From the NCBI GenBank assembly GCA_040752895.1, contig JBFMHN010000005.1:139626-203625 (forward strand): DNA of 64,000 bases, given 5' to 3'. Numbering within the stretch: position 1 is the first letter of the stretch; each line of letters opens with the position of its first letter. Origin of the DNA: Pseudomonadota bacterium (lineage in GTDB: Bacteria > Pseudomonadota > Alphaproteobacteria > GCA-2746255). Positions 2,482-58,115 of the stretch are shown in pieces. The translations under genes were made by a program, and so were the position numbers. The notes beneath the pieces were generated by a model, which saw only the letters and a list, made by a program, of their open reading frames with translations, was not told where the DNA came from and did no database searches.

Positions 2482-2491
2482 GGCGGCCGCC

Positions 2492-3616: not shown

Positions 3617-3621
3617 CTCCG

Positions 3622-5161: not shown

Positions 5162-5327
5162 CGGCCCGACCGGCACTCGACGACGTCCGGCACATGCCGG
5201 TGCGCGATCTGCTCGCTCTGCCAGCGGAGCAGTTGGTTCGGCTCCGCCGCGAAGCCCGCATGGCCCGCGAAACAGCTGACCGCCTCGAGCGGTGGCTCGA
5301 CGGCATCGCCCGGATCCAGGGAGGAGC

Positions 5328-6164
5328 ATGATGGCGCTCAAGATCGTCACGGCCGACGAGCGTCTGGCCGAAGCCAACAACAAGACCACCCTCGCGATCT
5401 TCGGGCCGAGCGGTGTCGGCAAGACCTCGCTGCTGAAGACGCTGCCCGCGCGCGAGACGCTCTGTATCGATCTCGAAGCGGGCATGAAGTCGGTCCAGGA
5501 CTGGCCCGGCGACAGCATCCCCGTGCGCACTTTCGCCGACGCGATCGACATCGGCTGCCTCGTGGGCGGCGTCGATCCCGCAGTGCCGCCGGACGGGTTC
5601 TTCTCGGAGGCCCACTACCAGCACCTGGCGGCGACCAATCCGAATCTGGTCCGCCTGATCGCCTCCAAGCGGATCATCTTCGTCGACAGCATCACGGACC
5701 TGACGCGCCAGGCGATGGCGTGGGCGCGGATGCGGCCGGAGGCCTTCTCGGAGAAGACCGGCAAGCCCGATACCCGCGGCGCCTACGGGCTGCTCGCGCG
5801 CGAGGTCATCGGGCTTCTGAAGCACCTGCAGCACGCGCAGGCGAAGACCGTGATCTTCGTCGGGATCCTGGAGAAGGTCACTGACGAGCTCAGCCGCGCC
5901 GTCTGGCAGCCGCAGATGGAGGGCGGCAAGGCAGGCCGCGAGCTGCCGGGCATCGTCGATCAGGTTATCAGCATGAGCTTCTTCAGCGCCGACGGCGACA
6001 GCTGGCGGCACGAGCCGGAGCGCGGCGAGACCCGGCGCCTGGTCTGCCGCGCCGGCAATCCCTTTGGCCTCCCCGCCAAGGACCGCTCCGGCCGCCTCGA
6101 CGTAACCGAGCCCCCAGACCTCGGCGCCCTCCTCTCCAAGATCAACGCGACCACGAAAGGATGA
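5328..6164 (+). CDS. AAA_24 / Sak4-like phage recombination ATPase
   Basis: Walker A LAIFGPSGVGKTSL right after the N-terminus. Size and downstream DUF669-like partner fit the Sak4 family. GGAGGAG RBS and ATGATG start overlapping the upstream stop. Confidence 0.65.
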   Translation: MMALKIVTADERLAEANNKTTLAIFGPSGVGKTSLLKTLPARETLCIDLEAGMKSVQDWPGDSIPVRTFADAIDIGCLVGGVDPAVPPDGFFSEAHYQHLAATNPNLVRLIASKRIIFVDSITDLTRQAMAWARMRPEAFSEKTGKPDTRGAYGLLAREVIGLLKHLQHAQAKTVIFVGILEKVTDELSRAVWQPQMEGGKAGRELPGIVDQVISMSFFSADGDSWRHEPERGETRRLVCRAGNPFGLPAKDRSGRLDVTEPPDLGALLSKINATTKG

Positions 6165-6886
6165 ATCCCATGACCTTCGACATGAACGACGCCGAGCCCC
6201 AGAAGACCGGCGAGCTCATCCCGGACGGCACCTTCGCCAAGGTGGCGATGGCGATCCGCAAGGGCGGCACGGACGGCCAAGCCGAGATCGATCGCGGCCT
6301 GCTCAAGGCCTCGAACTCGCCCGGCAGCGACGTGCTCATGCTCGACTGCGAGTTCACCGTGACCGAGGGACCGCATGCCCGGCGCAAGTTCTGGCAGATG
6401 TTCACCGTCCAGGGTGGCAAGGTGGACGAGCATGGCGTCTCGATCGGCTGGAAGATCTCCAAGAGCACCTTCCGCGCCATGATCGACTCGGCGCTCGGCC
6501 TCGATCCCGCCGACATGAGCGAGGCGGCGAAGGCGAAGCGCATCCTGCGCGGTCTCGCCGACTTGGGCGGCATCACCTTCGTCGCCAAGATCAAGATCGA
6601 GCCCTCCGAGGACCCCCGCTACGGCGACAGCAACAAGCTCGACCGCGTGGTCCTGCCGAGCGAGCCGGAATGGCGCAAGGTGATGGACGGCGAGGTCCTG
6701 CCTGCGAGCCCGAGCACCCGCGCCCGCCCGAAATCTGCTGCGCCGGCGGCGCAGCCGGCCTGGAACCAGGCGGCTCCCACCCAGCCGCCGGCACAGGCCG
6801 CCGCCCCGGCCTGGGCCAACGCAGGTGCGTCCACGCCGCCGCAGCCCGCCGGCAAACCCACCGGGCCCGCCTGGCTCAACAGCTGA
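6161..6886 (+). CDS. DUF669-like phage protein (partner of Sak4-type ATPases) with Pro/Ala-rich C-terminal tail
   Basis: N-terminal pattern FDMNDAEP...LIPDGTFAKVAMAI...FTVTEGPHARRKFWQMF matches the DUF669 signature. Start overlaps the stop of the ATPase gene. Confidence 0.5.
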   Translation: MNPMTFDMNDAEPQKTGELIPDGTFAKVAMAIRKGGTDGQAEIDRGLLKASNSPGSDVLMLDCEFTVTEGPHARRKFWQMFTVQGGKVDEHGVSIGWKISKSTFRAMIDSALGLDPADMSEAAKAKRILRGLADLGGITFVAKIKIEPSEDPRYGDSNKLDRVVLPSEPEWRKVMDGEVLPASPSTRARPKSAAPAAQPAWNQAAPTQPPAQAAAPAWANAGASTPPQPAGKPTGPAWLNS

Positions 6887-6891
6887 CCGCC

Positions 6892-7119
6892 ATGACCGAT
6901 GACGAGTGGCAGGCGCACGTGACGCGCGAAGCGGCAAAGGAGGTCGGCAAATGGCTCGAAGGGCGCGGAAGGCTCAATCAGCCCATCGCCGCCCTCACCA
7001 TGGCCGACCTCGAGGCCATGGCCTCGAATGCGATCTCCCGCTTCATCGTCCTGGCCTCGCGGCGGATCAAGGAGCAGCCCACCGGCTACGAGGACCTGAC
7101 CCGGCTCTTGCTCGGGTAG
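6892..7119 (+). CDS. hypothetical small phage protein
   Basis: Internal ATG of ORF 6670-7119. The upstream part of that ORF overlaps the preceding gene's C-terminus in another frame. Confidence 0.3.
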   Translation: MTDDEWQAHVTREAAKEVGKWLEGRGRLNQPIAALTMADLEAMASNAISRFIVLASRRIKEQPTGYEDLTRLLLG

Positions 7120-7498
7120 AGCCCTGCGCCCTGTGCGGGCGTGAGGCGCGCGGCTTCGGCTACGTCCACCGGCTGCAGTGGGACCGATTTCCGCACCACC
7201 GCTTCTGCTCAATGCGCTGCCTCGACGCCGGTTCGGCCCTCGCGAACAGGAACAACGGAATGATCGACAAGACCGAGATGGAGATCCGCGCGATCAAGGA
7301 TGCCCGCCGCTTCCTGGCCGAGGCGCTCACCGAGCTCGGCCTGATGGCGCCCTTTCATGACCGCAGCGCGGCCGAGATCGACCGCATTATCGAGGCCTGC
7401 ATCGATGGGTTCCAGGAGTCGATGCGCCGCCAGTCCGAGGAAGGGACGCGCAGCGACGAGCTGAACGATCCCATCCCTTTTTGAGGAGGCCGGCCGCC

Positions 7499-7714: not shown

Positions 7715-8475
7715 TCGATCTGAACCACGGCTCGGGCGCCGTCTATGGCGGCACCATCACCGGCGGGACGGCGACCCGCATCAATGCGCTTGTCGACGGC
7801 GCCCTCGTCAAGCGCCATCGCCGGCAGGCTCCACGCGACTATCTCGGCGGAAGCCGCATCGGCGAGCCCTGTGCGCGCCGGCTCGTCTATGAGATCAGCC
7901 ATGCACCGCCGGACGAGGGCCGCGAGTCCGATGGCACCATTTTGCGCATCTTCGAGGCCGGTCATCGCTTCGAGACGCTCTCGATCGGCTGGCTGCGTGC
8001 CGCGGGCTTCGATCTCTGGACAGAGCGCCGCGACGGCGGCCAGTTCGGCTTCTCGGCCGCCGGCGGCCGGCTGCGCGGCCATATCGACGGCGTCATCGTC
8101 GGCGGGCCCGATGTCGGCATCGCCTGGCCGGCTCTCTGGGAGCACAAGGCGCTCAACGCCAAATCCTGGAACGACCTGGTCAAGCGGGGCCTGGCGGTCT
8201 CGAAGCCGATCTACTTCGCGCAGGTCCAGCTCTACATGGCCTACATGGAGCTCGCGGTCGCGCTTTTCACCGCGATCAACAAGGACACCCAGGCGCTCTA
8301 TCACGAAGCCGTCGCCTTCGATGCGGCTGAGGCCCAGGCGCTCTCCAACAAGGCGGTCGAGATCATCCGTGCCGCGGAAGCAGGCGAGCTGCCGCCGCGC
8401 ATCGCTACGGCGCCCGACTTCTATCTCTGCCGTCTGTGTCCTTATCAGCAACGCTGCTGGGAGGGCGCGCCATGA
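7711..8475 (+). CDS. PD-(D/E)XK family exonuclease (YqaJ/RecB/Cas4-like) with C-terminal Cys cluster
   Basis: Motif GHIDGV...WEHKALN (D...EhK) and C-terminal CRLCPYQQRC. Placed in the replication/recombination module. Confidence 0.6.
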   Translation: MIDLNHGSGAVYGGTITGGTATRINALVDGALVKRHRRQAPRDYLGGSRIGEPCARRLVYEISHAPPDEGRESDGTILRIFEAGHRFETLSIGWLRAAGFDLWTERRDGGQFGFSAAGGRLRGHIDGVIVGGPDVGIAWPALWEHKALNAKSWNDLVKRGLAVSKPIYFAQVQLYMAYMELAVALFTAINKDTQALYHEAVAFDAAEAQALSNKAVEIIRAAEAGELPPRIATAPDFYLCRLCPYQQRCWEGAP

Positions 8476-9755: not shown

Positions 9756-12644
9756 ATGATCGATCTCAACGACGCGAGCGCCCCGCTACCCCGATTCGAT
9801 CTCGATGCGATCGCCGCGCGCCTGCGGGACAGCGCAGCGATCTGGGTGCCGCAGCATTTCCCGAACGGGAGGCGGGAAGGCGACGAATGGCGGCTCGCCA
9901 ACATCCGTGGCGATGCCCCGCGCAAGAACGGCTCCTGCGTCATCGCGCTCAAGGGCGAGCGTGCCGGGGACTGGATCGACTTCGACGGCGGCAGTGGCGG
10001 CGGGCCCCTGAGCACGCTTGCAGAGGCGACCGGCTATGCCGGGCACCAGCTGTTCGCCTATGCGGCCGAGCTGGCGGGCGAAGCCCCATTTGCGGCACGC
10101 CCGAGAAAGAAGGCTCCGCGCCAATCATCCGACGACCTGGCGCGCGAGATCGCCTTCATCCTGTCGGGCGCACGGCCGATCGACGGCACGCATGCGGCAG
10201 CATATCTCGCCGCCCGCGGCCTCGCGCTGCCGCCCTCGTCCGACCTCCTCTTCCATGACGATCTCGCGCACTGGGAGGCGAAGCGCGGCTTTCCCGGCAT
10301 GGTCGCCATCGTGCGCAACGCCGGTGGCGCGCAGATCGCGCTCCATCGCACCTATCTCGACCCAGAGAAGCCCGCCAAGGCCGACGTCGCGCCTGCGCGC
10401 AAGACGCTCGGGCCGGTCGGCGGCGGCGCGGTGCGGCTGGCCGAACCGCAGAATGGCCTCATCGCTCTGACGGAGGGCATCGAGACGGCGCTCGCCGTGA
10501 TGTCCGCATGCCCTGATCTGCCAGCCTGGGCGACGTTGTCCGCCTCCGGCATGGAGAGCGTCGAGCTGCCGACCGGCATCGCGCGTGCTGTGCTGCTCGC
10601 CGACCACGACGACGCCGGGCGCCGCGCAGCCGAGGCAGCCGCCGCGAAGCTTGCGATGGAGGGCCGCCAGGTCTCCATCGCGCTGCCGCCCCGCGAGGGC
10701 GACGATTTCAACGACCTGCTCCTGCGCGACGGCCCGGAAGCGGTCAGGACCGCGATCGATGCCGCCGTGGCATGGGGCGGAGACAGTCCCTTGCACGCCG
10801 GCGGCGAAGGCACTCAGCAGCTTGAAATGGACCCCGTCATCGGTGCCACGGCGCCGGAACCCGACGAGGTTGCGCGCACCGCCGCAACCTATCCGCTGCC
10901 CTTCATCGAGGGTGTCGAGCTGCGCTACTTCCGCACGCGCAAGGGCGATGTCCTCGTCCACCGCAATGCCGGCAAGGACAAGGATGGCCACACCATCTGG
11001 CGCGTGGTCGCGAGCCCCTTCGGCATCCCCGCCCGGCTGCGCTATCTCGACCAGGAGGGGACCTATGGTCTGCGCCTGCTCGTGCGCGACATGCAGGGCG
11101 AGCCGCGCGCCGTCGACTTGCCGCGCGCCGGCCTCGCCCGCCAGGGTGCGCAGGAGATACGCTCCGCCCTCTTCGCCGCGGGCCTGCGCACCTATGGCGA
11201 TGGCGACCAGGTCGCGCTGGCGGTGCTCAAGGCGGCCGATCCGCGAGACGAGATCCTCGTCGTCAGCCGGCCCGGCTGGCATCGGCTCGATGGCTGCGAC
11301 CGCCCGCTCTTCGTGACGCCGGCGGGCCGGGCGATCGGTGATGCGCCGGCCTCCACGCTGGAGCTCGTCGCCAACGCCCGCTACGACACCGTGCGCGGCA
11401 GCCTCGACGGCTGGAAGGCCGCGGCGGCCGCCGCGGCATCGGTGAAGGGCTGTCCGCACTTCCTCCTCGGCGTGCTCGCGGGATTCTGCGGTGTCGTGCA
11501 GTCGCTCGCCGGCCTCGACAGCTGCGGCATCAATCTTTCCGGCCTCTCGTCGAGCGGCAAGACCACCGCCCAGCGCCTCGCCGTGTCCGCCTGGACCTCG
11601 ACAGCCATCGGTGCCGGACTGCTCCAGTCGATGCGCTCGACCGAGAACGCCATCGAGGTCTTCGCCCAGGCGGCGAGCGGCACCGTCCTTGCCCTCGACG
11701 AGCTCGCCCATGCCGACGGCCGGGCAATCGCCAAGCTCATCTACGCCATCGCCGGCGGCCAGGGGAAGGCGCGCATGACGGCCGGCGCCATCCTCAAGCA
11801 GCGCTATGCCTGGTCGACCTATGCGCTGCTCTCCAGCGAGTGCTCCCTGGAGGAGAAGGTGCGCGCCGACGGCGCGTCCTGGATCGCCGGCATGGCGGTG
11901 CGCATCCTCGACGTCGACGTGACGGAAGTGGACCGCTCGGTGCCGGCGGCCAGGCTCAAGGCGATCGCCGACGCCGAGAGCCACTGCGGCCATGCCGGCC
12001 CCGCCTTCGTCGAGCGGCTGGTCGCGGCCAGGCTGCACCATGCGCCCGACGCGCTGCGCGACCGCATTCTCGAACAGGCGCGCGAGCTTGCAGGCGACCG
12101 TGCCGATTCCGCACGGCTCCGGGCCGCGACCTGCCTTGCTCTCCCGCTCGTCGCCGGCAGGCTCGCCCAGGACTTCGATCTGCTGCCCTGGTCGATCGAC
12201 ATCGAAGCGCCGGTCCGCTGGGCCTGGGAGCGCTTCGAGAAATCCTCCGATGCCGAGGCGCTCACCCCCGACGAGCAGGGCATCGCGAGCCTGCGCGCCT
12301 GGATCGCGGAACGCTGGGACGTCACCATCAAATCCGTCGACATCGGCGTCGAGAGCTTCGACCGCAAGCTGAACAACCGCGAGGCCGTCGCCTGGTACGA
12401 CGACGCGGCCATCTATGTGCCCGCGCAGCGCCTGCGCGAAGCAGCGGGTGAGACGCTGAAGACCCAGCAGATCGTCAAGGCGCTCGCCGACCGGGACCTG
12501 CTGGCGACGCGCCAGGATCAGCGGCGCGCCACCGTGCGGTGGGTCCCGAAGATCGGTCGCATCGACGCCTACGCGCTCAAGCGCTCCGAGTTCGGCCGCC
12601 GCTCGGCCTGGGTCGATCACGGAATGCAGGAGGACGACGCATGA
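9756..12644 (+). CDS. phage/plasmid primase: Toprim domain plus C-terminal DUF927/SF3 helicase-like NTPase
   Basis: Toprim acidic motifs (ALTEGIETALA, LLADHDDAGRRAA, EGDDFNDLL). Downstream P-loop LSGLSSSGKTTAQ. Confidence 0.65.
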   Translation: MIDLNDASAPLPRFDLDAIAARLRDSAAIWVPQHFPNGRREGDEWRLANIRGDAPRKNGSCVIALKGERAGDWIDFDGGSGGGPLSTLAEATGYAGHQLFAYAAELAGEAPFAARPRKKAPRQSSDDLAREIAFILSGARPIDGTHAAAYLAARGLALPPSSDLLFHDDLAHWEAKRGFPGMVAIVRNAGGAQIALHRTYLDPEKPAKADVAPARKTLGPVGGGAVRLAEPQNGLIALTEGIETALAVMSACPDLPAWATLSASGMESVELPTGIARAVLLADHDDAGRRAAEAAAAKLAMEGRQVSIALPPREGDDFNDLLLRDGPEAVRTAIDAAVAWGGDSPLHAGGEGTQQLEMDPVIGATAPEPDEVARTAATYPLPFIEGVELRYFRTRKGDVLVHRNAGKDKDGHTIWRVVASPFGIPARLRYLDQEGTYGLRLLVRDMQGEPRAVDLPRAGLARQGAQEIRSALFAAGLRTYGDGDQVALAVLKAADPRDEILVVSRPGWHRLDGCDRPLFVTPAGRAIGDAPASTLELVANARYDTVRGSLDGWKAAAAAAASVKGCPHFLLGVLAGFCGVVQSLAGLDSCGINLSGLSSSGKTTAQRLAVSAWTSTAIGAGLLQSMRSTENAIEVFAQAASGTVLALDELAHADGRAIAKLIYAIAGGQGKARMTAGAILKQRYAWSTYALLSSECSLEEKVRADGASWIAGMAVRILDVDVTEVDRSVPAARLKAIADAESHCGHAGPAFVERLVAARLHHAPDALRDRILEQARELAGDRADSARLRAATCLALPLVAGRLAQDFDLLPWSIDIEAPVRWAWERFEKSSDAEALTPDEQGIASLRAWIAERWDVTIKSVDIGVESFDRKLNNREAVAWYDDAAIYVPAQRLREAAGETLKTQQIVKALADRDLLATRQDQRRATVRWVPKIGRIDAYALKRSEFGRRSAWVDHGMQEDDA

Positions 12645-12659
12645 CGGTGCGCGCCCATC

Positions 12660-13110
12660 CGTGCGCGCGCGCTGTGGCAACTGTGGCCAGTGTGGCCACG
12701 CCTAGGCGTGTGGCCATTGTGGCACCTGTGGCCAGTGCCGCCTCCCTCGATCATGTGGCCACTGTGGCACCTGTGGCCACTCCGCCCGCAGCGGCCGCCC
12801 GAGCAGGCATTTCAGTGGCCACAGTTGCCACACGGAATATCGCTGTGGCCACTGCTAACGCGTTGATGAACAAGGGCAGTTGCCACACTTTCCACAGTGG
12901 CCACAGCCGGGGGACAGATATAGGGGAAGAGAGGGTATTCCGTTCTTGCGGGAAGGTGCGGAGGGGTCGCGCGTCAATTTTATCTCTAGGAAGTGGAAAG
13001 TGTGGCAACTGTGGCCACTCGCCTTTGTCTTCAAGGGCTTATCAGTGGCCACATGAAATTCCGATGTGGCAACTGTGGCCACTGGCGAAGATCGCCCGCC
13101 CTTCCAAACA
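12660..13110. repeat. iteron-like array: at least 12 copies of TGTGGCCAC / TGTGGCAACTGTGGCCAC (palindromic core GTGGCCAC)
   Basis: Seen directly, e.g. ctgtggcaactgtggccagtgtggccac, catgtggccactgtggcacctgtggccac, and gatgtggcaactgtggccactgg on both sides of a less repetitive spacer. Irregular spacing, both orientations. Immediately downstream of the primase gene. Confidence 0.8.
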
Positions 13111-13345
13111 TCTCCGCCGTCGCCGGTCATCGACGCTGACCCTTGTGGCGACGAGCGCGCCGCGACGGCAGCGAGGCCGCGATCCTCCTGCCGATCGGTG
13201 ATCCCGAGCCGAGCGGACGACGACGGCCAGCTCCGCCAAGAACCAGACCGTCGCCGTCCTGACCACAACGATCCCGATCACGGAGACCATCATGGCTTCG
13301 ACGACTCTGACCGCGGCGTGTGCGGATGCAAGCCTGCCGGCGGTC

Positions 13346-13828
13346 GGCATGGCGCCGCCGCTCAGCGCCATCCTCTCTCTCGACCTCGGCACCACCATGG
13401 GGTGGGCCGTGCGCATGGCCGACGGAGCCATTCACAGTGGCGCCGTCTCCTTCCGCCCGAGCCGCTATGACGGCGGTGGCATGCGCTACCTGCGCTTCCG
13501 CAGCTGGCTCGACAGCCTTGCCGCCGATGCCGGTGGTCCCGGCGCGGTCTACTTCGAGGAAGTCCGGCGGCATGTCGGAACCGATGCGGCGCATCTCTAT
13601 GGCGGCTTTCTGGCGACACTGACCGCGTGGTGCGAGCAGAGGGGCGTTGCCTACGAGGGTGTGCCCGTCGGCACCATCAAGCGCCACGTCACCGGCAAGG
13701 GCAACGCGGACAAGGCGGCGGTGCTGGCCGCCGTCCGCGCACGCGGCTTTGCGCCCGCCGACGACAACGAGGCCGACGCCATCGCCATCCTGCTCTGGGC
13801 GATCGAGACGGGCGGAGGCGTGCGATGA
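13346..13828 (+). CDS. RuvC-like Holliday junction resolvase (phage-type)
   Basis: ILSLDLGTTMGWAV near the N-terminus and C-terminal DNEADAIAILLWA, the typical RuvC catalytic acidic residues. Confidence 0.6.
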   Translation, partial: GMAPPLSAILSLDLGTTMGWAVRMADGAIHSGAVSFRPSRYDGGGMRYLRFRSWLDSLAADAGGPGAVYFEEVRRHVGTDAAHLYGGFLATLTAWCEQRGVAYEGVPVGTIKRHVTGKGNADKAAVLAAVRARGFAPADDNEADAIAILLWAIETGGGVR

Positions 13829-14082
13829 CCGCCGAGATGCTGCTGAAGCACGCGGCCGCGGTGGTCGCCAATCGGCGTGAGACCTACGGCTGTCCCCGCA
13901 CCAGCATGGAAGCGATCGCGAAGCGCTGGTCGCTCAGTCTCGGGCACACCGTGACGCCGGCTCAGGTGGCGCTCTGCCTCATCGAGCTGAAGCTCGCGCG
14001 CCTCGCGCACGATCCGGCGCACCTCGACAGCATGGTCGATGTCGCCGGCTATGCCGCCGTCCTGCGAGAGGTGGCGCGGTGA
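13825..14082 (+). CDS. hypothetical phage protein
   Basis: Internal ATG of ORF 13627-14082 forming an ATGA overlap with the resolvase stop. Confidence 0.4.
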   Translation: MTAEMLLKHAAAVVANRRETYGCPRTSMEAIAKRWSLSLGHTVTPAQVALCLIELKLARLAHDPAHLDSMVDVAGYAAVLREVAR

Positions 14083-14276
14083 GGTGGTTCCCGAAGGGCT
14101 ATGGCGGCGAGCGCCGATCCGCCGAGGAGATCAAGCGCGAGGGCTGGCGCGAGCAAGGCCTGCTGGTGGTGAGCGCCGAGGACCAACGGCTCACCTGGCC
14201 CGAGCGCGAGCTCATCCGCCAGCTCGGCGAGAAGCTCTATGGCCGGCGCGCATCCCAGGAGGCGCGCCATGGCTGA
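14079..14276 (+). CDS. hypothetical small phage protein
   Basis: 65 aa ORF chained by overlapping stop/start. Confidence 0.3.
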   Translation: MRWFPKGYGGERRSAEEIKREGWREQGLLVVSAEDQRLTWPERELIRQLGEKLYGRRASQEARHG

Positions 14277-14709
14277 GACGCACTGGACGCCGTCGCTGGT
14301 CGAGGAGCGGCTCGCCGAGGCGGCAAGCGTGCTCAAGCGGCTGCCCGAGCCGAAGTTGCAGGGCTATTACAATCTCTGGCCACGGATCATCTACGAGTTC
14401 AGCGATCTGGTGGGACAGGAGCCCAGGCCGATGCGTGTGCTGCCGTCCCCCGCAGCGATCAGCCGCATGGAGGAGACGCTGACCTGGACCGTCGGGCTCG
14501 CCCCCGTCGACGGCAAGATCGTCTGGATGCGCGCCTTCGGCGAGCGCTGGAAGACCATCTGCTGGACGGTGGGGCTGCAGCGCTCCGCCGCCCACGAGCA
14601 CTGGCACTATGCGCTCTGTGTCATTGCCTGGCGGCTTAATGGGCGGCGGCTCAATCGTAATCATTCGCGGCGCAAAGTGATCGAGATGACCGGAGCGGCG
14701 AAGTCTTGA
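14269..14709 (+). CDS. hypothetical phage protein
   Basis: ORF with overlapping start. Followed by a hairpin terminator. Confidence 0.4.
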   Translation: MAETHWTPSLVEERLAEAASVLKRLPEPKLQGYYNLWPRIIYEFSDLVGQEPRPMRVLPSPAAISRMEETLTWTVGLAPVDGKIVWMRAFGERWKTICWTVGLQRSAAHEHWHYALCVIAWRLNGRRLNRNHSRRKVIEMTGAAKS

Positions 14710-14721
14710 GAAGCAAAGAGA

Positions 14722-14745
14722 AAGGTGTCCGGCGGACACTTTTCG
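14722..14745 (+). terminator. rho-independent terminator candidate
   Basis: GTGTCCGgcGGACAC stem followed by TTTTCG. Confidence 0.5.
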
Positions 14746-14879
14746 CTCGGACAAAATCGGTCGGATCGGCGTAGATTTCGGTCATGCTCAGGTGAGCCGC
14801 GCGCGGACGCCGCCGATCGGCGCCGAGCACGGGTCCTCCCTGGCCGAGAGCGTATGCTGGCGGCAATGGCCCGGAAGTT

Positions 14880-15050
14880 CGCCACCGCCAGCGGCGGAAT
14901 CTGAGTTACCAGTTACCACCGAGCCGGCCGCCCGTCGCACGAATTAAGCCCGTGTTCGCGCGGGCTTGGCGCGCCTCCCGAATGGGAGCCGCGCCCCGGT
15001 AACCGTCCCCGGCAGTTACCACCCTCCGGTTACCACCCTGTCCTTCCGGA
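14880..15050. promoter_or_regulatory. cluster of five GTTACC(ACC) / GGTAACC repeats upstream of the methyltransferase genes
   Basis: gagttaccagttaccaccgag ... ccggtaaccgtcc ... cagttaccaccctccggttaccaccctg, all within ~150 bp before the first ParB-MTase start. Confidence 0.45.
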
Positions 15051-15061
15051 TTCCGAGGTCC

Positions 15062-16471
15062 ATGTCGCCACGGCTGCCCGACAGCGTCGAGCATTGGCCG
15101 CTCGACCGGCTGCGCGCCTACGCACGCAACCCGCGCACGCACTCGGACGAGCAGGTGGCGCAGATCGCAGCGAGCATCGTCGAGTTCGGCTGGACCAGCC
15201 CGGTGCTGGTCGCGGGCGACGGCACGGTGATCGCCGGGCACGGCCGCCTCGAGGCAGCCCGCCGTCTCGGGCTCGATGCCGTGCCGGTCGTGGTGCTCGA
15301 CCACCTGAGCGAGGCGCAGCGCCGGGCCTACGTGATCGCGGACAACAAGCTGGCGCTCAACGCCGGCTGGAACGAGGAGCTGCTCGCCGCCGAGCTGCAT
15401 GCATTGAACGGCGAAGGCTTCGACTTGGCGCTCACCGGCTTCGACGAGGCCGAGCTCGACCGGCTGATGGCGCCGCTCGACGACACGGAGGCGATGTCGC
15501 CGGGTGGCGACACTGGCGAGAACGGCGACGCCGCGGACGAAGCGCCCGAGCCTCCGCGCAATCCGGTCACCCGGCCGGGCGATCGCTGGCAGCTCGGCGA
15601 TCACTGGCTGCTCTGCGGCGACAGCACCGATGCTGCCGTTGTCGCACGCGTGATGAATGGCGAGCGCGCGTCGCTGCTGTTTACCAGTCCGCCCTACGGC
15701 AACCAGCGGAATTACACGACTGGCGGGATCGGCGACTGGGATGCGCTGATGCGCGGCGTCTTCTGCCACCTCGATGAGGCGATGGCGGAAGACGGCCAGG
15801 TGCTCGTCAATCTCGGCCTCGTCCATCGCGACAACGAGTGGCAACCTTATTGGGAAGCCTGGCTCGCCTGGATGCGAGCCCAGGGCTGGCGGCGCTTCGG
15901 CCTTTACGTCTGGGACCAGGGGCCTGGACTTCCCGGAGACTGGAACGGCCGGCTCGCGCCCTCATTCGAGCTGCTATTCCACCTCAACCGCCTAGCGCGC
16001 AAGCCGAACAAGATCGTGCCCTGCAAGTGGGCCGGGCACATCAACGACAGCCACGGCGGCATGCGGGGCAAGGACGGCACCGTGGGCGAGTGGACTCATG
16101 CCGGCCAGGGCGTCCAGGAGACGCGCATCCCCGACAACGTCCTGCGCATCACGCGGCACAAGGCGCGCGGCATCGAGACCGAGCACCCGGCGGTGTTTCC
16201 GGTGGCGCTGCCCGAGTTTGTCATGAGCACCTATTCGGCAGCGGGTGACGTGGTGTTCGAGCCCTTCGCGGGATCCGGCACCACGTTGATCGCTGGCGAG
16301 CGCACCGGACGGAATGTGAGAGCGATCGAACTCGCGCCCGAGTATGTGGACGTCGCGCTCCTACGCTGGCGCCAGCTGTTTCCCGGAACCGAAGCCGTTC
16401 TCGACGGGGACGGCCGGACCTTCGAAGCGATCGCCACCGAGCGTGGCATCGACCTTCACGATGCGGTCTGA
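15062..16471 (+). CDS. ParB-like nuclease domain fused to N6/N4 DNA methyltransferase (paralog 1)
   Basis: N-terminal ParB-N motifs (VLVAGDGTVIAGHGRLEAARRLG). MTase motif IV SPPY (LLFTSPPYGNQ) precedes motif I FEPFAGSGTT. Confidence 0.75.
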   Translation: MSPRLPDSVEHWPLDRLRAYARNPRTHSDEQVAQIAASIVEFGWTSPVLVAGDGTVIAGHGRLEAARRLGLDAVPVVVLDHLSEAQRRAYVIADNKLALNAGWNEELLAAELHALNGEGFDLALTGFDEAELDRLMAPLDDTEAMSPGGDTGENGDAADEAPEPPRNPVTRPGDRWQLGDHWLLCGDSTDAAVVARVMNGERASLLFTSPPYGNQRNYTTGGIGDWDALMRGVFCHLDEAMAEDGQVLVNLGLVHRDNEWQPYWEAWLAWMRAQGWRRFGLYVWDQGPGLPGDWNGRLAPSFELLFHLNRLARKPNKIVPCKWAGHINDSHGGMRGKDGTVGEWTHAGQGVQETRIPDNVLRITRHKARGIETEHPAVFPVALPEFVMSTYSAAGDVVFEPFAGSGTTLIAGERTGRNVRAIELAPEYVDVALLRWRQLFPGTEAVLDGDGRTFEAIATERGIDLHDAV

Positions 16472-17714
16472 TCATCTGCAGGTCGAGCAGTGGCCGATCG
16501 AGCGGCTCCTGCCCTATGCGGCGAACGCCCGGACCCATCCGGAGGACCAGGTCGCCCAGATCGCCGGATCGATCGCGGAGTTCGGCTTCAACGTCCCGTG
16601 CCTCGTGGACGAGCGCGGCGTGCTGGTGGCCGGCCACGGCCGCTTGCTGGCGGCCCGGCGCCTCGGTCTGGCGGAGGTGCCGGTCATCCGGCTCGGCCAT
16701 CTGACCGACGCCCAGGCGCGCGCCTTCCGGATCGCGGACAACCAGATCGCGCTCAACGCCGGCTGGGACGACTCCCTGCTCGCGGCCGAGCTCGCGCGCC
16801 TGAAGGAGGACGGGGTTGACCTCGATGTCCTCGGCTTCGGCGAGGACGAGCTCGACCGCCTGTTCGATGACCTGAACGGGACCAATGGCGCGACGGAGGG
16901 CGAGGACGCCGTCCCGGAGCCGCCTGTGGAACCCGTCACACGCCCGGGCGACCTCTGGCTGCTTGGCGCGCATCGCCTGCTCTGCGGCGACGCCACCAGC
17001 GCCAGCGACGTCGAGAGGCTGCTCGCCGGAGCGGTCCCGCATCTGATGGTGACGGACCCGCCCTACGGGGTCGAGTACGATCCCTCCTGGCGCAACGAGG
17101 CCGGCGTGTCGGCGACCGCGCGCACCGGCCGCGTCTCGAACGACGACCGTGCCGACTGGCGCCAGGCCTGGGCGCTGTTCCCGGGCGACGTCGCCTATGT
17201 CTGGCACGCGGGCGTCCATGCGCGCACCGTCGCCGAGAGTCTGGAGGCGAGCGCGCTGATGATCCGCTCGCAGATCATCTGGGCGAAACCGCGCTTCGTG
17301 CTCGGGCGCGGCGACTACCATTGGCAGCACGAGCCGTGCTTCTACGCGGTCCGCAAGGGCGCGAACGGACACTGGCAGGGTGCGCGCGACCAGTCGACGC
17401 TGTGGACAATCGGCAGCGGCGGCGATGAGGACGAAGCGACGACACACGGCACGCAGAAGCCGGTCGAGTGCATGCGCCGGCCGATCGTCAACAACAGCAG
17501 GCGCGGCGATCTCGTCTACGAGCCCTTCGCCGGCAGCGGCTCGACCATCGTCGCAGCCCAGAGCACGGGGCGCGCCTGTCTCGCGCTGGAGGTCGACCCA
17601 CGCTACTGCGACGTGATCGTCGAGCGGTGGCAGGCGTTCACGGGGTCGCCCGCGATCCTCGATGGCGGTGAGCGGACCTTTGCGGACGTGAAGGACGAGC
17701 GGGCAGCGGCATGA
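16461..17714 (+). CDS. ParB-like nuclease domain fused to N6/N4 DNA methyltransferase (paralog 2)
   Basis: Same architecture: ParB-N (LVAGHGRLLAARRLG), DPPY (MVTDPPYGVEYD), then YEPFAGSGST. Start overlaps the end of paralog 1. Confidence 0.75.
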   Translation: MRSDHLQVEQWPIERLLPYAANARTHPEDQVAQIAGSIAEFGFNVPCLVDERGVLVAGHGRLLAARRLGLAEVPVIRLGHLTDAQARAFRIADNQIALNAGWDDSLLAAELARLKEDGVDLDVLGFGEDELDRLFDDLNGTNGATEGEDAVPEPPVEPVTRPGDLWLLGAHRLLCGDATSASDVERLLAGAVPHLMVTDPPYGVEYDPSWRNEAGVSATARTGRVSNDDRADWRQAWALFPGDVAYVWHAGVHARTVAESLEASALMIRSQIIWAKPRFVLGRGDYHWQHEPCFYAVRKGANGHWQGARDQSTLWTIGSGGDEDEATTHGTQKPVECMRRPIVNNSRRGDLVYEPFAGSGSTIVAAQSTGRACLALEVDPRYCDVIVERWQAFTGSPAILDGGERTFADVKDERAAA

Positions 17715-19560: not shown

Positions 19561-20181
19561 ATGCCGCAGCGACGCCGCCGGGACCAGCGTCCCGGCGGCA
19601 GTCGTTTGGGCGGGCCGTTCTTCCGGAGACTTCCATTGGGACTGTCGATCCGCGCCTATGCCAGGGCCCGTGGCGTGAGCCATGTGGCGGTGCTCAAGGC
19701 CGCCAAGGCCGGCCGCATTCCGATGGAGCCGGACGGCACCATCGATCCCGCCAAGGCCGATGCGGCTTGGGCGCGATCGACGGAGCCCGGGCGGTCGCGT
19801 GCCAAGCCGGAGAAGCTGAAGCCGGTCGCCGAAGCGGCGGTCGGGTCGGTGCGCGAGACGCTCAAGGAGCAGGGGCTGCCTGCGAGCGGCAGCGTCACCT
19901 TCGTGCAGGCGCGCACCGCCCATGAGATCGCCAAGGCGCATCTCGCGCGGCTCCGGCTGCAGGAACGCAAGGGCGAGCTCGTCGACCGGGCGCGGGCGAC
20001 GGGGCTCGTGTTCCGGCTCGCCCGCGAGGAGCGGGACGCCTGGGCGAACTGGCCGGCGCGGGTCGCGGCCCTGATGGCGGCCGAGCTCGGTGTCGAGGCG
20101 CATCCCATGCAGAAGCTTCTGGAGACGCATGTCCGTTCACACCTCGCCGAGCTCGCCGAGGTCCGGCCCGAGTTTCGCTAG
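19561..20181 (+). CDS. terminase small subunit (HTH-containing)
   Basis: HTH-like segment LSIRAYARARGVSHVAVLKAAKAGRI. Directly upstream of and overlapping the gpA-type large terminase gene. Confidence 0.5.
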   Translation: MPQRRRRDQRPGGSRLGGPFFRRLPLGLSIRAYARARGVSHVAVLKAAKAGRIPMEPDGTIDPAKADAAWARSTEPGRSRAKPEKLKPVAEAAVGSVRETLKEQGLPASGSVTFVQARTAHEIAKAHLARLRLQERKGELVDRARATGLVFRLAREERDAWANWPARVAALMAAELGVEAHPMQKLLETHVRSHLAELAEVRPEFR

Positions 20182-22180
20182 CGCGGCCCTGCGGTTCGGT
20201 GACCTGTTCGCCTTCGAGGGTGTGGAGGAGCTTTGGCAGTCGTGGCGCGACGGCCTCACGCCGGACCCGCTGCTCGACGTCTCTGAGTGGGCGGACCGCC
20301 ACCGCTTCCTGAGCCCGCGGGCGTCGGCGGAGCCGGGGCGCTATCGCACCGATCGCACGCCCTACATGCGCGCCATCGTCGATGCGCTGTCGCCGTCGCA
20401 TCCCGCGCGGCGTGTCGTCTTCATGAAGGCGGCGCAGGTGGGCGCGACCGAGGCCGGCAACAACTGGATCGGTTACGTCATCCATCATGCGCCGGGCCCG
20501 ATGCTCGCCGTCCAGCCGACGGTCGAGCTCGCCAAGCGCTTCTCGCGCCAGCGCATCGATCCGCTGATCGCCGAGAGCCCGTCCCTGCGCGAGCGGGTGA
20601 AGCCGGCGCGCTCGCGCGACGCCGGCAACACGGTGCTGTCGAAGGAGTTCCCGGCCGGGCTTCTGGTCATCACCGGCGCCAACTCGGCGGTCGGCCTGCG
20701 CTCGATGCCGGCGCGCTACCTCTTCCTCGACGAGGTCGATGCCTATCCGCCCTCGGCCGACGAGGAAGGCGACCCGGTCGCGCTCGCCGAGGCGCGCACG
20801 CGCACCTTCTCCTGGCGGAGCAAGGTATTCATGGCCTCGACTCCGACGATCCACGGGATCTCGCGCATCGAGCGGGAGTACGAGGCGTCCGACCAGCGCC
20901 GGTTCTTCGTGCCGTGCCCGCATTGCGGCCACCGCCAGTGGCTCAGGTTCGAGCGGCTCAAGTGGGACAAGGGCCGGCCGGAGACGGCGCACTATCTCTG
21001 CGAGGCCTGCGACGGCGCGATTCAAGAGCACCACAAGACGGCAATGCTGATCGCCGGCGAGTGGCGGCCGACGACCGAGGCCTCCGATTCGACGACGATC
21101 GGCTTTCATCTCTCGGCCCTCTACTCGCCGGTCGGCTGGCTGTCCTGGGAGGCGATCGCCCGCATGTGGGAGGCCGCCACCACCGACGAGGCCAGGCGCA
21201 GCTTCAAGAACGGTGTCCTCGGCGAGACCTGGATCGAGACCGGCGAGGCGCCGGACTGGCAGCGGCTCTACGAGCGGCGGGGGGATTGGCCGATCGGTAC
21301 CGTGCCTGGCGGCGGGCTGTTCCTGACCGCCGGCGCCGACGTCCAGAAGGACCGGATCGAAGTCTCGATATGGGCCTGGGGCCGCGGTCTCACCAGCTGG
21401 CTCGTCGATCACATCGTGATCGACGGCGGCCCGGAGCGCGCCGAAGCCTGGGCGGAGCTCTCCGCACTGCTCGACCGAACCTGGCCACACGCGTATGGGC
21501 AGCGGCTCGGCCTCGCCAAGCTCGGCATCGACACCGGCTACGAGGCGCCGGCGGTCTATGCCTGGGCGCGCCAGGCTGGCTTCGCCCAGGTCGCGCCGGT
21601 GAAGGGTGTCGAGGGATTCAACCGCGCCGCCCCCGTAGTCGGGCCGAGCTATGTCGACGTGACGGAAGGCGGCCGCAAGCTGCGCCGCGGCGCGCGGCTC
21701 TGGACCGTGGCGGTTGCCACCTTCAAAAGCGAGACCTACCGCTTCCTGCGGCTCGGCCGCCCGACGGAGGACGAGCTCGCCGAAGGAACGCAGTACCCCG
21801 CCGGCTACGTCCATCTGCCGAAGGGGGCGGAGGCCGAGTGGGTCAAGCAGCTCGTCGCCGAGCAGCTGGTGACCGTCAAGACCCGCCGCGGCTTCCAGCG
21901 CCTCGAATGGCAGAAGCTGCGCGAGCGCAACGAGGTGCTCGACTGCCGCGTCTACGCCCGCGCCGCTGCCTGGATCGCCGGCATCGACCGCTGGAGCGAG
22001 GGAACCTGGCGCGACCTCGAGGCCCAGGTCACGGCAAACGACGGCGAAAGCGGAACGATGCCGGAGGCGGATGATTCGTCTGCGGAGCCGGATTCCTCCG
22101 ACGCGCCCTCGGCGGGCCTCCTGCGGCGTGAGCGGCGGCCGCGCGGCCGGCGCGTGTTCACCCCGAGCTACTTGAGCTGA
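20129..22180 (+). CDS. terminase large subunit, lambda gpA family
   Basis: Conserved gpA-family stretches (SEWADRHRF, TPYMRAIVDAL, Walker-like VVFMKAAQVGATE, FLDEVDAYP, FVPCPHCGHRQWLRFERLKW zinc-binding segment). Start uncertain: the ORF frame opens at 20090 inside terS. Confidence 0.8.
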   Translation: MSVHTSPSSPRSGPSFASAALRFGDLFAFEGVEELWQSWRDGLTPDPLLDVSEWADRHRFLSPRASAEPGRYRTDRTPYMRAIVDALSPSHPARRVVFMKAAQVGATEAGNNWIGYVIHHAPGPMLAVQPTVELAKRFSRQRIDPLIAESPSLRERVKPARSRDAGNTVLSKEFPAGLLVITGANSAVGLRSMPARYLFLDEVDAYPPSADEEGDPVALAEARTRTFSWRSKVFMASTPTIHGISRIEREYEASDQRRFFVPCPHCGHRQWLRFERLKWDKGRPETAHYLCEACDGAIQEHHKTAMLIAGEWRPTTEASDSTTIGFHLSALYSPVGWLSWEAIARMWEAATTDEARRSFKNGVLGETWIETGEAPDWQRLYERRGDWPIGTVPGGGLFLTAGADVQKDRIEVSIWAWGRGLTSWLVDHIVIDGGPERAEAWAELSALLDRTWPHAYGQRLGLAKLGIDTGYEAPAVYAWARQAGFAQVAPVKGVEGFNRAAPVVGPSYVDVTEGGRKLRRGARLWTVAVATFKSETYRFLRLGRPTEDELAEGTQYPAGYVHLPKGAEAEWVKQLVAEQLVTVKTRRGFQRLEWQKLRERNEVLDCRVYARAAAWIAGIDRWSEGTWRDLEAQVTANDGESGTMPEADDSSAEPDSSDAPSAGLLRRERRPRGRRVFTPSYLS

Positions 22181-50560: not shown

Positions 50561-50573
50561 TGCGATCCCCCTC

Positions 50574-51533: not shown

Positions 51534-51537
51534 CGGT

Positions 51538-57995: not shown

Positions 57996-58115
57996 CGGAC
58001 ACTCCTTTGGCCTTCAACTGCCTGAACCTGAGTCTGGGCAGTGCGACCTGAAAGGCGCTCGGAGTCGTCGTCCAACCGGTTACCGAATTCAAAGACGTCC
58101 ATCCCCTCTCCCCGC

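Follow-up and report, generated by a model that had tools for sequence, protein, structure and literature searches.

The repeat array directly downstream of the primase gene is very probably the replication origin of an alphaproteobacterial prophage, forming with the primase-helicase encoded upstream, which would read it, a Rep-ori module of the type found in staphylococcal pathogenicity islands (SaPIs); this function is suggested by comparative and structural evidence. An iteron-type phage origin beside a primase/initiator gene had been proposed by the first-pass annotation of the window (the whole 64-kb stretch of DNA analysed), and the proposal is supported by the adjoining SaPI Rep/Cch-like helicase and by a layout that is conserved while the sequence of the repeated unit changes. 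Most likely, this is an origin type already known from SaPIs, here with a fixed layout of 6+6 sites and unusually kept translatable.

Fourteen exact copies of TGTGGCMAC are found in the 64-kb window, all of them within a 410-bp stretch (12673-13082) and none outside it, whereas shuffling leads one to expect 0.53 copies, and none of 100 shuffles gave as many as 14. When degenerate copies are allowed, the stretch resolves into 21 non-overlapping 9-bp units with the consensus TGTGGC(C/A)AC, 15 on the + strand and 6 on the - strand, whose positions 2-5 (GTGG) are invariant. The units follow each other head-to-tail with a 9-bp period, grouped as triplets and doublets, and the first, at 12673, lies 28 nt past the stop codon (12642-12644) of the Toprim-DUF927 primase gene. 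The dense cluster, its location just 3' of that gene and the presence of both orientations, all claimed previously, are thereby borne out. The earlier count of at least 12 copies is right for the motif family, whereas the exact 8-mer palindrome GTGGCCAC is present in nine copies only (TGGCCACA is present in 12), and what had been described as irregular spacing is in fact an ordered series of triplets and doublets within an imperfect inverted repeat.

A host intergenic repeat family unrelated to phages, the check named in the first-pass annotation, does not account for the array, and a widespread or dispersed host repeat is ruled out because copies in the window are confined to the array and clusters in viral contigs track the primase. 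Across 2.9 million viral contigs, the 18-mer TGTGGCAACTGTGGCCAC is found in 10 stretches, eight of them on contigs with the same primase, the other two being single chance matches inside CGNCGH-coding ORFs of unrelated low-GC phages; every multi-copy occurrence of the motif is on a contig with a Toprim-DUF927 primase.

SaPI origins are located directly downstream of rep and contain 6-12 short iterons around an AT-rich centre, with at least two iterons per side in opposite orientation, and these iterons are read by the C-terminal winged helix of Rep, probably as two hexamers (PMC9371898; PMC7581432). The origins of Gram-negative PICIs are described in the same way (PMC6092414). In the window array, - and + triplets flank a centre with at least two iterons per side in opposite orientation, and "AT-rich" applies to this centre in a relative sense only, in a genome of ~70% GC. 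Twelve of the 21 units are found in two arms of six units each (Table 1), the right arm mirroring the left, so arranged that 12813-12904 and 12993-13084 make up an imperfect inverted repeat of 92 nt (75% complementary) on either side of a centre of 86-88 bp. Three extra triplets are located on the primase side of these core arms, and one of the 45-bp repeats that carry them is missing (deleted) in the relatives L003 and L086. The IHF-like core of the left arm is one of only two such cores in the 64-kb window, and a core in the same register is found in the arms of L167, L165 and L169.

The centre reaches 64% AT in its best 25-mer and does not rank with the most AT-rich spots in the window; the idea that the centre is the most AT-rich spot was rejected on composition, and only a relative dip in GC holds. 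This merely relative AT-richness counts against a SaPI-type origin.

Table 1. Positions of the array, its parts and the adjoining genes in the 64-kb window.
Feature	Position	Strand	Description	Basis
Primase-helicase gene	9756-12644	+	962 aa; DnaG-like zinc-binding/N domain, DUF7146, Toprim_3, DUF927 MCM-like AAA+ helicase, helical domain, winged-helix-like C-terminal domain (~856-950)	
SD-like AGGAGG and ATG	12628-12643	+	AGGAGG 12628-12633, 7 nt, ATG 12641-12643 overlapping the primase stop (ATGA)	
Coupled open frame	12641-13201	+	186 codons through the whole array; in frame with the RuvC-like gene and split from it by TGA 13199-13201	
Auxiliary iterons	12672-12786	+	three 45-bp tandem repeats, each with a + triplet: 12673-12699, 12709-12735, 12754-12780	TRF (period 45, 2.6 copies) and unit map
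Left origin arm (putative), six units	12815-12905	-	doublet 12815-12832 (-), 11 bp, single 12844-12852 (+), 26 bp, triplet 12879-12905 (-)	
IHF-like core	12856-12867	-	ATCAACGCGTTA, in the left-arm 26-bp spacer	
Origin centre, presumed melting/loading site	12906-12991	.	86 bp, ~55% GC (flanks ~70%), asymmetric	composition and alignment of 10 centres
Conserved centre element	12913-12924		GACAGATATAGG	alignment of 10 centres
Conserved centre element	12965-12974		GGTCGCGCGT	alignment of 10 centres
AT-richest tract of the centre	12975-12987		CAATTTTATCTCT, directly after GGTCGCGCGT	
Right origin arm (putative), six units	12992-13082	+	triplet 12992-13018 (+), 26 bp, single 13045-13053 (-), 11 bp, doublet 13065-13082 (+)	
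Weaker IHF-like site	13029-13041	+	CTTCAAGGGCTTA, in the right-arm 26-bp spacer, in the register of the left-arm site	
RuvC-like Holliday-junction resolvase gene	13292-13828	+	next gene of the operon	PHROG 159

The protein encoded upstream of the array is predicted to combine, in one polypeptide, a DnaG-type primase and a self-loading helicase of the class of SaPIbov1 Rep and SCCmec Cch (DUF927). Pfam assigns DUF7146, Toprim_3 and DUF927 (E 3.5e-36) to the 962-aa protein, with Toprim_3 and DUF7146 in the N-terminal 340 residues, and PHROGs annotates it as DNA primase. A phmmer search of the PDB retrieved Cch (5DGK, 4e-11) and SaPIbov1 Rep (8TCH, 2e-6), and the AF2 model (pLDDT 84.5) matches the same two structures in Foldseek over ~580-590 aligned columns (5DGK, E 2e-17, TMt 0.77; 8TCH, E 5e-17, TMt 0.71), as well as DnaG (2AU3, E 7e-11); the model also contains a helix-helix-hairpin unit at residues 856-950. 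The element itself is a full temperate phage, present as a prophage, and not a PICI satellite lacking virion genes, as the window carries a gpA-type large terminase (20090-22180), a portal of the lambda family and a long late region in one orientation, and every gene between 5.3 and 43 kb points the same way. Among GenBank phages, blastn with the array returned no match and tblastn with the primase returned only partial matches, less than 36% identical and including the SaPI-like PT1028, so there is no annotated close relative among them.

The units are better conserved than the DNA between them in 10 relatives whose primases are 94-97% identical, with 19 of 189 variable columns in units and 68 of 221 in spacers (Fisher p=2e-7); the units evolve ~4x more slowly than the spacers. 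The complete doublet-11-single-25/26-triplet-centre-triplet-25/26-single-11-doublet layout is also found in L167, L165, L168, L164 and L169, and L179 has, by eye, a similar triplet-26-single-11-doublet arm, the unit sequences of these six being TGTGGCCAC, TGTGGCTAC, ACTGCCTAC, GTGTCGAAA, AACGGGAAC and GTGGCCAC, respectively. Layout and spacings are kept in relatives whose units (TGTGGCTAC, ACTGCCTAC, GTGTCGAAA and AACGGGAAC) are unrelated in sequence. The array is directly 3' of the primase-helicase ORF in 20+ relatives, with the exception of L160, where a 73-aa gene lies between them, and the Toprim-DUF927 gene is the sole gene that always adjoins it, even where the genomic context differs, as in the serine-recombinase elements L164 and L179. 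The array centre of L178 contains an IS21-family element. Homologous modules are also present in lysogens of Chelatococcus sambhunathii DSM 18167 (L004), in the Magnetospirillum isolate with L160 and in Bradyrhizobium sp. HKCCYLS2038 (L163), and 370 DUF927-CTD homologues were retrieved.

The first-pass annotation had looked to the N-terminus of the Toprim-DUF927 protein as the binder of the repeats, an assignment that is not favoured by two relatives: the N-terminus of L179 is unrelated, yet its units are the GTGGCCAC units of the window, and the primase module of L168 is 63-74% identical, yet its units are ACTGCCTAC. The type of unit thus follows the helicase module and not the primase N-terminus, and the units are likely read by the Rep-like helicase/C-terminal module. 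Only five alignment columns separate GTGGC-type proteins from the others, two of them in the winged-helix-like domain, which is too few for covariation to place the specificity determinant, and lineages that differ in their units have a nearly identical putative recognition helix; both this scarcity of discriminating columns and the near-identity of the helix count against the SaPI-type assignment. Two relatives of the primase N-module, L010 and L125, carry a D5_N+DUF5906 helicase module and have only that N-module in common with the window protein. In a sister lineage with primases of ~975 aa, the array is found in-frame inside the 3' end of the primase ORF and is followed by a conserved PDWL(K/R)E tail. 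Only columns 1-354 of the profile of these primases align with the window-type profile in HHalign, and a PDB profile search for their C-terminal module gave no match, so that its interpretation as a diverged DUF927 was rejected and it is treated as a different helicase module.

Signals for host initiation factors were also sought. The stretch 12645-13291 contains no DnaA box within one mismatch, no CtrA site and no GANTC, as would suit an initiator that loads itself. To match a DnaA box, the innermost units (GTGGAAAG) need two mismatches, a level at which the window contains 48 matches, and the reading of them as DnaA boxes was therefore dropped. A promoter scan gave no sigma-70-like promoter on either strand, a single terminator-like match, at 12956-12972 in the centre, is weak and no more than chance would give, and Rfam at a permissive threshold gave nothing relevant.

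Based on the work with SaPI Rep, one helicase hexamer would dock on each arm through its C-terminal domains, with six sites for six protomers, and the two hexamers would melt the centre with no need of DnaA or a loader. Each hexamer would then encircle one strand and travel outward in the 3'-5' direction, while the fused primase would lay the first primers for the host polymerase. At the IHF-like site in the middle of each arm, a host bending protein may bend the DNA so that the three distal sites fold back onto the triplet, and the three extra triplets on the primase side may either raise the local concentration of the initiator or titrate it for copy control.

What was unexpected is a stop-free, SD-coupled frame across the putative origin. 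This frame is the -1 frame relative to the primase and starts from a separate ATG, and an SD-like purine run with an ATG overlapping or abutting the primase stop is kept in eight other lineages. A -1 frameshift from the primase frame into the array frame was considered and rejected, as the overlap region 12539-12644 shows no slippery heptamer and the separate SD and ATG provide a better explanation. The frame is stop-free across the array in 9 of the 10 lineages checked, as opposed to 1 of about 50 other frames, and in six lineages studied by shuffling, all six of them open, the chance of finding no stop is 0.006-0.04 each. It is fused in-frame with the downstream RuvC-like gene in L003, L088, L165, L164 and L169, and stops 90 nt short of the RuvC-like start in the window and most close relatives. 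The GC3 of the frame is 0.56-0.58, compared with 0.83-0.87 in the flanking genes, and is not protein-like. The earlier statement that the region has no coding potential is consequently correct as regards protein-like composition, but does not allow for one + frame that is translationally coupled and conserved open across the array.

The conserved openness points to a second, non-replicative constraint on the same DNA, and such a constraint beyond replication counts against a plain SaPI-type origin. The likeliest reason is that the frame would keep a gap of ~0.6 kb in the operon translated, allowing the genes from the RuvC-like one onward to escape Rho-dependent polarity. A bolder reading, offered tentatively and rather unlikely, is that of a dual-use element, in which the 6+6 template would position a double hexamer and translation across the origin would be deliberate, coupling ribosome and RNA-polymerase traffic to initiation. 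Such traffic could clear or activate bound initiator, or time firing to the expression of the replication operon, and in the sister lineage the origin would be translated as the disordered C-terminal linker of the initiator itself, ending in the conserved PDWL tail. If so, the open frame would do more than prevent polarity.

The same frame could instead be the primary function, the ORF encoding a VAT-rich repeat peptide or a disordered N-terminal extension of the RuvC-like protein, with DNA repeats that mirror peptide repeats. Its openness, the low per-lineage chance of that openness, the conserved SD and ATG at the primase stop, the fusions with the downstream gene and the in-frame array of the ~975-aa primases all speak for coding, but this explanation is highly improbable: apart from the low GC3 and the stop 90 nt before the RuvC-like start, the two orientations of the unit encode different peptides, conservation is at the level of the 9-mer with reverse complements included, and between lineages it is the DNA layout and spacing that are kept, not the peptide sequence. 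Somewhat less improbable, though still unlikely, is an operator or enhancer array without origin function, bound by the Rep-like protein or another regulator and serving autoregulation of the replication operon or late-gene activation. Initiators often autoregulate through their iterons, as in iteron plasmids, regulator arrays, too, typically consist of iterated sites in both orientations, and the array lies between the replication genes and the next block of genes. Nevertheless, no promoter was found on either strand, the coupled frame runs straight through the array within a co-oriented block of genes, no HTH regulator consistently adjoins the array among the relatives, and a promoter or operator makes little sense inside the primase ORF of the sister lineage. 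The dimeric-regulator site that the first-pass annotation offered as an alternative is likewise without support, the 3+1+2 layout of each arm being unlike dimer sites, and mirrored sets of six sites about a lower-GC centre are instead an origin design (PMC9371898).

The two remaining explanations are less probable still. The array could be a centromere-like (parS/parC-type) site or a packaging (pac/cos) site, bound by the terminase or by the ParB_N-methyltransferase encoded at 14966-16471, 1.9 kb downstream of the array. Clusters of short repeats also make up plasmid centromeres and some pac sites, a resemblance that leaves this explanation barely credible given that the linkage with the ParB_N-methyltransferase is inconsistent (in its place L160 has a C5 methylase, and in L164 and L179 the 2-3 kb downstream of the primase gave no ParB_N call), that the cos site of a lambda gpA-type terminase is expected beside the terminase genes, about 7 kb away, and that co-variation and co-localisation link the array to the helicase module alone. 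Least probable of all, the 92-nt inverted arms could act as a hairpin or cruciform, either in single-stranded DNA (a single-strand origin or priming signal) or in mRNA (processing or attenuation), rather than as protein sites in double-stranded DNA. As single-stranded DNA, the core folds at -81 kcal/mol (z = -11.6 relative to shuffles), but any mirror arrangement of copies of one motif makes the arms complementary, L165 and L168 keep the unit positions but have no complementarity between the 26-bp spacers of their two arms, nine further units on the left side have no partner, and no Rfam family matches.

As a SaPI-type replication origin, the array would extend the staphylococcal design of a self-loading helicase with a downstream iteron origin to complete temperate phages of Alphaproteobacteria. 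The relatives provide a natural series of origins with identical geometry (six sites per arm, 26- and 11-bp spacers, and an IHF-like site per arm) and interchangeable 9-bp sites, so that this geometry is a testable template for the positioning of two helicase hexamers at an origin, a point left open by the SaPI literature (PMC9371898), and the interchangeable units would permit specificity-swap work. The open frame, together with the sister lineage in which the origin is inside the initiator ORF, raises the question of how often, and why, phage origins stay translatable. In practical terms, the layout is a sequence signature for annotating prophage origins in Alphaproteobacteria and for building vectors for such hosts.

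Different known systems share part of this organization. The lambda ori, composed of iterons and an AT-rich part, lies inside gene O and is also translated, as is the array inside the 3' end of the initiator gene in the ~975-aa primases; the window array, in contrast, lies beyond the initiator ORF within a coupled frame of its own, and lambda O is not a helicase but recruits host DnaB through P. In phage P4, the alpha protein combines primase, helicase and origin binding in one polypeptide and acts with ori/crr, with short, octamer iterons in both orientations whose type I sequence we take to be TGTTCACC. The window shares with it the primase, the helicase and short iterons in both orientations, whereas the P4-type helicase module is D5_N/Primase_Cterm (SF3) and that of the window protein is DUF927, without D5_N; P4 alpha and its cognate site are cited in passages of PMC6092414. 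Iteron plasmids have repeated initiator sites beside a melting region, sometimes with IHF sites, and auxiliary iterons for copy control (PMC4980987). Their iterons (Rep_3/pi/TrfA) are 17-22 bp direct repeats in helical phase, unlike the 9-bp units in both orientations of the window, and their winged-helix dimer/monomer initiators have no helicase activity and need DnaA boxes and host DnaB loading, neither of which is seen in the window.

The staphylococcal systems are closer. SCCmec Cch is the best structural match (5DGK, TMt 0.77) and has the same Pfam domain, DUF927, but SCC elements carry no fused Toprim primase, and the Cch2 site consists of three 5-nt repeats. The direct repeats bound by the C-terminal domain of Cch2 lie in the intergenic region that follows the Cch2 gene (PMC7581432), and for Cch itself no mapped origin is reported in the cited SaPI/Cch literature. 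The pri-rep-ori modules of Gram-negative PICIs (e.g. EcCICFT073) can be likened to the window by their described origin organization, and those are satellites of Enterobacteria. The SaPI replicons (SaPIbov1 Rep, SaPI1 Pri+Rep and SaPI5 PriRep) differ from the window element, a complete alphaproteobacterial temperate phage and not a satellite, in their iterons of 5-6 bp, as opposed to 9-bp units at a 9-bp period in a fixed 3+1+2 pattern, a dissimilarity that counts against a SaPI-type origin; in addition, the window has an IHF-like site per arm, extra tandem triplets, a Toprim/DnaG-type primase with DUF7146 and a conserved open, putatively translated frame spanning the origin. What the two have in common is a helicase core homologous to SaPIbov1 Rep (8TCH), initiator and helicase in one predicted self-loading protein with the primase fused as in PriRep5, an ori right after the stop codon with inverted sets of short iterons around a lower-GC centre, and, in the window, 12 core sites that fit the proposed double hexamer (PMC9371898).

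The array of 9-bp units, the probable replication origin of the prophage, starts 28 nt past the end of the 962-aa primase-helicase gene and is housed in the gap of 647 bp that precedes the next gene. The unit TGTGGCMAC occurs in 14 exact copies, all of them within 12673-13082 and none elsewhere in the 64 kb, while shuffles of the window give 0.53 copies on average and never reached 14. The first-pass annotation had described a repeat cluster here, and its coordinates and description hold; of its "at least 12 copies", the exact palindrome GTGGCCAC accounts for only 9, while the family as a whole has more members than had been stated. Once the degenerate copies TGTGGCCAG, TGTGGCCAT, TGTGGCACC and TGTGGAAAG are included, there are 21 non-overlapping units, 15 on the plus and 6 on the minus strand, with GTGG invariant at positions 2-5.

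The spacing of the units, which had been called irregular, is ordered: they run head-to-tail with a period of 9 bp, grouped as triplets and doublets, and the array core is an imperfect inverted repeat with mirror-image arms of six units each. The centre between the arms is asymmetric, since different elements occupy its two sides. In an alignment of ten origin centres (A3), two such elements are conserved whatever iterons a lineage has: GACAGATATAGG near the left triplet, and GGTCGCGCGT, with TATCT and then a T/C-rich tract behind it, beside the right triplet. They may mark a melting site, a priming start or a site for a host factor. The 26-bp spacers of both arms carry a T-rich run, (A/T)TCAA, four bases and TT(A/G) in fixed register, a motif that matches WATCAANNNNTTR, the consensus of Escherichia coli IHF. 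The IHF-consensus-like (W)ATCAANNNNTTR lies in the same spacer register in the window and in three homologous loci (L167, L165 and L169), whatever the iteron sequence, and the relaxed core ATCAANNNNTTR is found once in the array of six of ten loci but at just two places in the 64 kb. Neither DnaA boxes (within 1 mismatch) nor CtrA or GANTC sites were found in the origin region.

Features of the array and of the surrounding genes (window coordinates)
Feature	Position	Remarks
Sak4-like ATPase	5292	
Two genes of unknown function	6161-7484	PHROG 2300; DUF6511
Cas4-type exonuclease	7711	
Dda-like helicase	8436	
962-aa primase	9756-12644	
Array	12673-13082	
Auxiliary iterons		Three 45-bp tandem repeats on primase side (left), each with one further + triplet
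Inverted repeat of core	12813-12904 / 12993-13084	92 nt; complementarity 75%
Left arm, doublet	12815-12832 (-)	11 bp to single
Left arm, single	12844-12852 (+)	26 bp to triplet
Left arm, 26-bp spacer	12853-12878	
Left arm, triplet	12879-12905 (-)	
Origin centre	12906-12991	86 bp; GC about 55% vs roughly 70% in genome
Left centre element	12913-12924	
Right centre element	12965-12987	
Right arm, triplet	12992-13018 (+)	26 bp to single
Right arm, 26-bp spacer	13019-13044	
Right arm, single	13045-13053 (-)	11 bp to doublet
Right arm, doublet	13065-13082 (+)	
RuvC-like resolvase	13292	
DUF6378, DUF6362	13627-14709	
Terminator-like hairpin and T run	14717-14747	AAAGGTGTCCGGCGGACACTTTTCGCT; directly after DUF6362 gene, within co-oriented block
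Second repeat cluster	14904-15035	(A/G)GTTACCA x4; smaller; before and at start of ParB_N-methyltransferase gene
ParB_N-methyltransferase	14966-16471	Tandem N6/N4 DNA methyltransferase genes
Second methyltransferase	16344-17714	Overlaps the former by about 130 nt
gpA-type terminase	20090	
Lambda-family portal	22401	

The array is kept in all ten close relatives (primase 94-97% identical, from metagenome-assembled alphaproteobacterial genomes and IMG/VR contigs), where variable columns are rarer in units (19/189) than in spacers (68/221; Fisher p = 2e-7). Two of these loci, L003 and L086, lack exactly one 45-bp auxiliary repeat (12718-12762 in the window), a copy-number polymorphism. The central segment 12926-12960 shows two haplotypes among the close relatives, with the flanking conserved elements fixed. 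Among more distant homologues of the helicase module, an array lies directly 3' of the gene in each complete contig with DNA.

Iteron units of loci graded by identity to the window
Locus	Helicase-module identity	Unit	Host or remark
L167	88%	TGTGGCMAC	same motif as window
L165	81%	(T/G)GTGGCTAC	
L160	75%	GTGGCCAC	Magnetospirillum
L162	69%	degenerate GTGGCT(A/T)C	Bradyrhizobium
L004 / L088	64% (whole protein)	degenerate GTGGC(C/A)A	L004, Chelatococcus
L168	59%	ACTGCCTAC	
L164	56%	GTGTCGAAA	
L179	55%	GTGGCCAC	Azospirillum MAG
L169	52%	AACGGGAAC	

Despite unrelated unit sequences, the window, L167, L165, L168, L164 and L169 have one layout in common: outward from a centre of 73-101 bp, each arm consists of a triplet, 25-26 bp, an inverted single, 11 bp and a doublet. 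Judged from these sequences, the unit class tracks the helicase module and not the primase module. L179, which is without DUF7146 and has an unrelated N-terminus, nevertheless has GTGGCCAC units, and L168, with a primase module 63-74% identical to that of the window, has ACTGCCTAC units. About 130 further loci have only residues 1-340 of the window primase in common; they carry other helicase modules, and their arrays are built on other motifs, including ACGTTCCC, AGGTTCAC and AGGTCCCC. The 18-mer TGTGGCAACTGTGGCCAC was found in ten stretches among 2.9 million viral contigs. For eight of them the contig also encodes this primase, and the remaining two are isolated chance matches in CGNCGH-coding ORFs of unrelated phages. 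In another locus, L178, an IS21-family element (IstB and rve transposase, minus strand, about 5200-6955) has inserted into a GTGTCGAAA-type array at its centre, and as the left half of the origin alone remains, this is probably an inactivated replicon.

The primase-helicase contains DUF7146, Toprim_3 and DUF927 domains, and its sequence matches SCCmec Cch (5DGK, E 4e-11) and a SaPI protein (8TCH, E 2e-6). An AlphaFold2 model built with 50 homologues (mean pLDDT 84.5) superposes over about 580-590 aligned columns both on Cch (E 2e-17, TM 0.77 of target) and on the SaPIbov1 "initiation of replication protein with helicase activity" (E 5e-17, TM 0.71), while DnaG primases match its N-terminal third. 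In the model, the last ~95 residues (856-950) fold as a helix-helix-hairpin unit of winged-helix type. Only five alignment columns discriminate the GTGGC-type proteins from the others; two of these, I886 and T900, the latter immediately N-terminal to helix 903-912, fall in this winged-helix-like domain.

The array region had also been thought to have no coding potential. It is indeed not gene-like, with a GC3 of 0.56-0.58 against 0.83-0.87 in the flanking genes, but one plus-strand frame across it is conserved free of stops. An ATG at 12641, preceded at 7 nt by AGGAGG (12628-12633), overlaps the primase stop (ATGA) and opens a frame, the same as that of the RuvC-like gene, which runs without stops to 13201, well beyond the array. 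A Shine-Dalgarno-like run and ATG at the primase stop are also seen in L001, L167, L165, L162, L004, L088, L164 and L169, and the frame continues into the downstream gene in L003, L088, L165, L164 and L169. The plus frame is stop-free over the array in 9/10 lineages, compared with one of about 50 other frames; the exception is L160/L161, which has neither an open frame over the array nor an ATGA stop. In this Magnetospirillum prophage, an opposite-strand 73-aa gene (6031-6252, weak YozE_SAM_like match) lies between primase stop and array. When spacer bases were shuffled with the units held fixed and that one frame was scored, the chance of a stop-free frame was 0.006-0.04 per lineage, and it is open in all six lineages tested.

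The common ~975-aa primases form a sister lineage that has only residues 1-340 in common with the window protein; their array is part of the primase coding sequence, within its last ~110 codons, and a conserved PDWL(K/R)E tail comes after it. The initiator gene thus seems to contain the origin, an arrangement known from lambda gene O, the established parallel for a translated origin. Comparable 9-bp arrays of this type are found at L008 (7594-7928), L056 (7636-7928) and about 100 further loci of L006-L159, one example being TGTGAACCT x3, centre, AGGTTCACA x3, which encodes low-complexity GERGERF and CEPCEPCEP; the helicase module of these proteins had no match to DUF927 by Pfam, PDB or HHalign. 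Because frames are open over the array and the sister lineage has it within an ORF, ribosome passage over the origin seems to be under selection. Untranslated stretches within operons invite Rho-dependent termination, and by this general rule the preferred reading is that the open frame would protect expression of the downstream genes; translation might conceivably also be coupled directly to origin firing.

Other roles for the array account less well for these observations than a replication origin does. A purely regulatory operator array is unlikely, given that no promoter was found, that the operon is co-oriented and that the sister lineage has its array inside an ORF. A centromere or packaging site is also unlikely, as the linkage to a ParB_N-methyltransferase is inconsistent and the terminase is of cos type and about 7 kb off. 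The codon statistics contradict a primarily coding repeat, as do the two orientations of the units and a peptide that is not conserved. Action as a hairpin or cruciform is suggested by a fold energy of -81 kcal/mol (z -11.6), but the arm spacers are non-complementary in L165 and L168, and yet the unit positions are kept.

The array sits in a prophage-like block of co-oriented genes, and no tRNA gene was found in the window. Arrays larger than the second cluster, of similar motif, occur directly 5' of a DNA-methylase gene in L160 (GTTTCCA x9, 8116-8278) and about 3 kb 3' of the primase in L010 (GGTTACCA x16, 10581-10957); all three clusters could be sites for the ParB_N domain or a late regulator. 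Outside the phage block lie defence-island-like genes (47798-59030, minus strand: a DUF499 protein, an SNF2/ResIII helicase with NOV_C domain and a WYL-domain regulator), and on its other side (502-4398) an SMC/AAA_23-type ATPase, a HATPase_c/HEAT protein and a response-regulator protein.

SaPI Rep combines initiator and self-loading helicase in one protein, with a C-terminal winged helix that recognises the iterons, and SaPI5 has a primase-Rep fusion; the SaPI ori, directly 3' of rep, has six to twelve penta- or hexanucleotide iterons, at least two on each side of an AT-rich centre in opposite directions, and two hexamers are thought to load, one per side (PMC9371898). Cch, a DUF927 protein, is a relative of SaPIbov1 Rep (PMC7581432). 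This Rep-ori design is reproduced point by point in the window. The sequences establish the architecture of the protein, where the array lies and its linkage to the helicase module, together with the statistics, the symmetry and the conservation of the units; from the SaPI work we infer what array and primase-helicase would do together. One hexamer would bind each six-site arm through its C-terminal domains, and both, needing neither DnaA nor a loader, would melt the centre and then separate 3'-5', the first primers coming from the fused Toprim primase. The conserved spacer motif suggests that an IHF-type host protein may bend each arm at the 26-bp spacer, which would return the distal three sites towards the triplet. 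More speculatively, the three extra triplets might concentrate or titrate the initiator.

Iteron-plasmid, lambda-O and P4-alpha origin classes were considered, and the module lacks the defining features of each. In the literature searched, neither this phage group nor DUF7146 was found described, and GenBank phages gave no close relative. The module is related to the SaPI/PICI replicon through its helicase and is probably akin to it in working, but unlike the satellites with Rep-ori, the element is not a PICI, since it encodes its own terminase and portal. It differs from known Rep-ori systems in its host clade and full-phage context, in 9-bp units set in a fixed 3+1+2 pattern, and in its IHF-like sites, auxiliary triplets and conserved, putatively translated frame.
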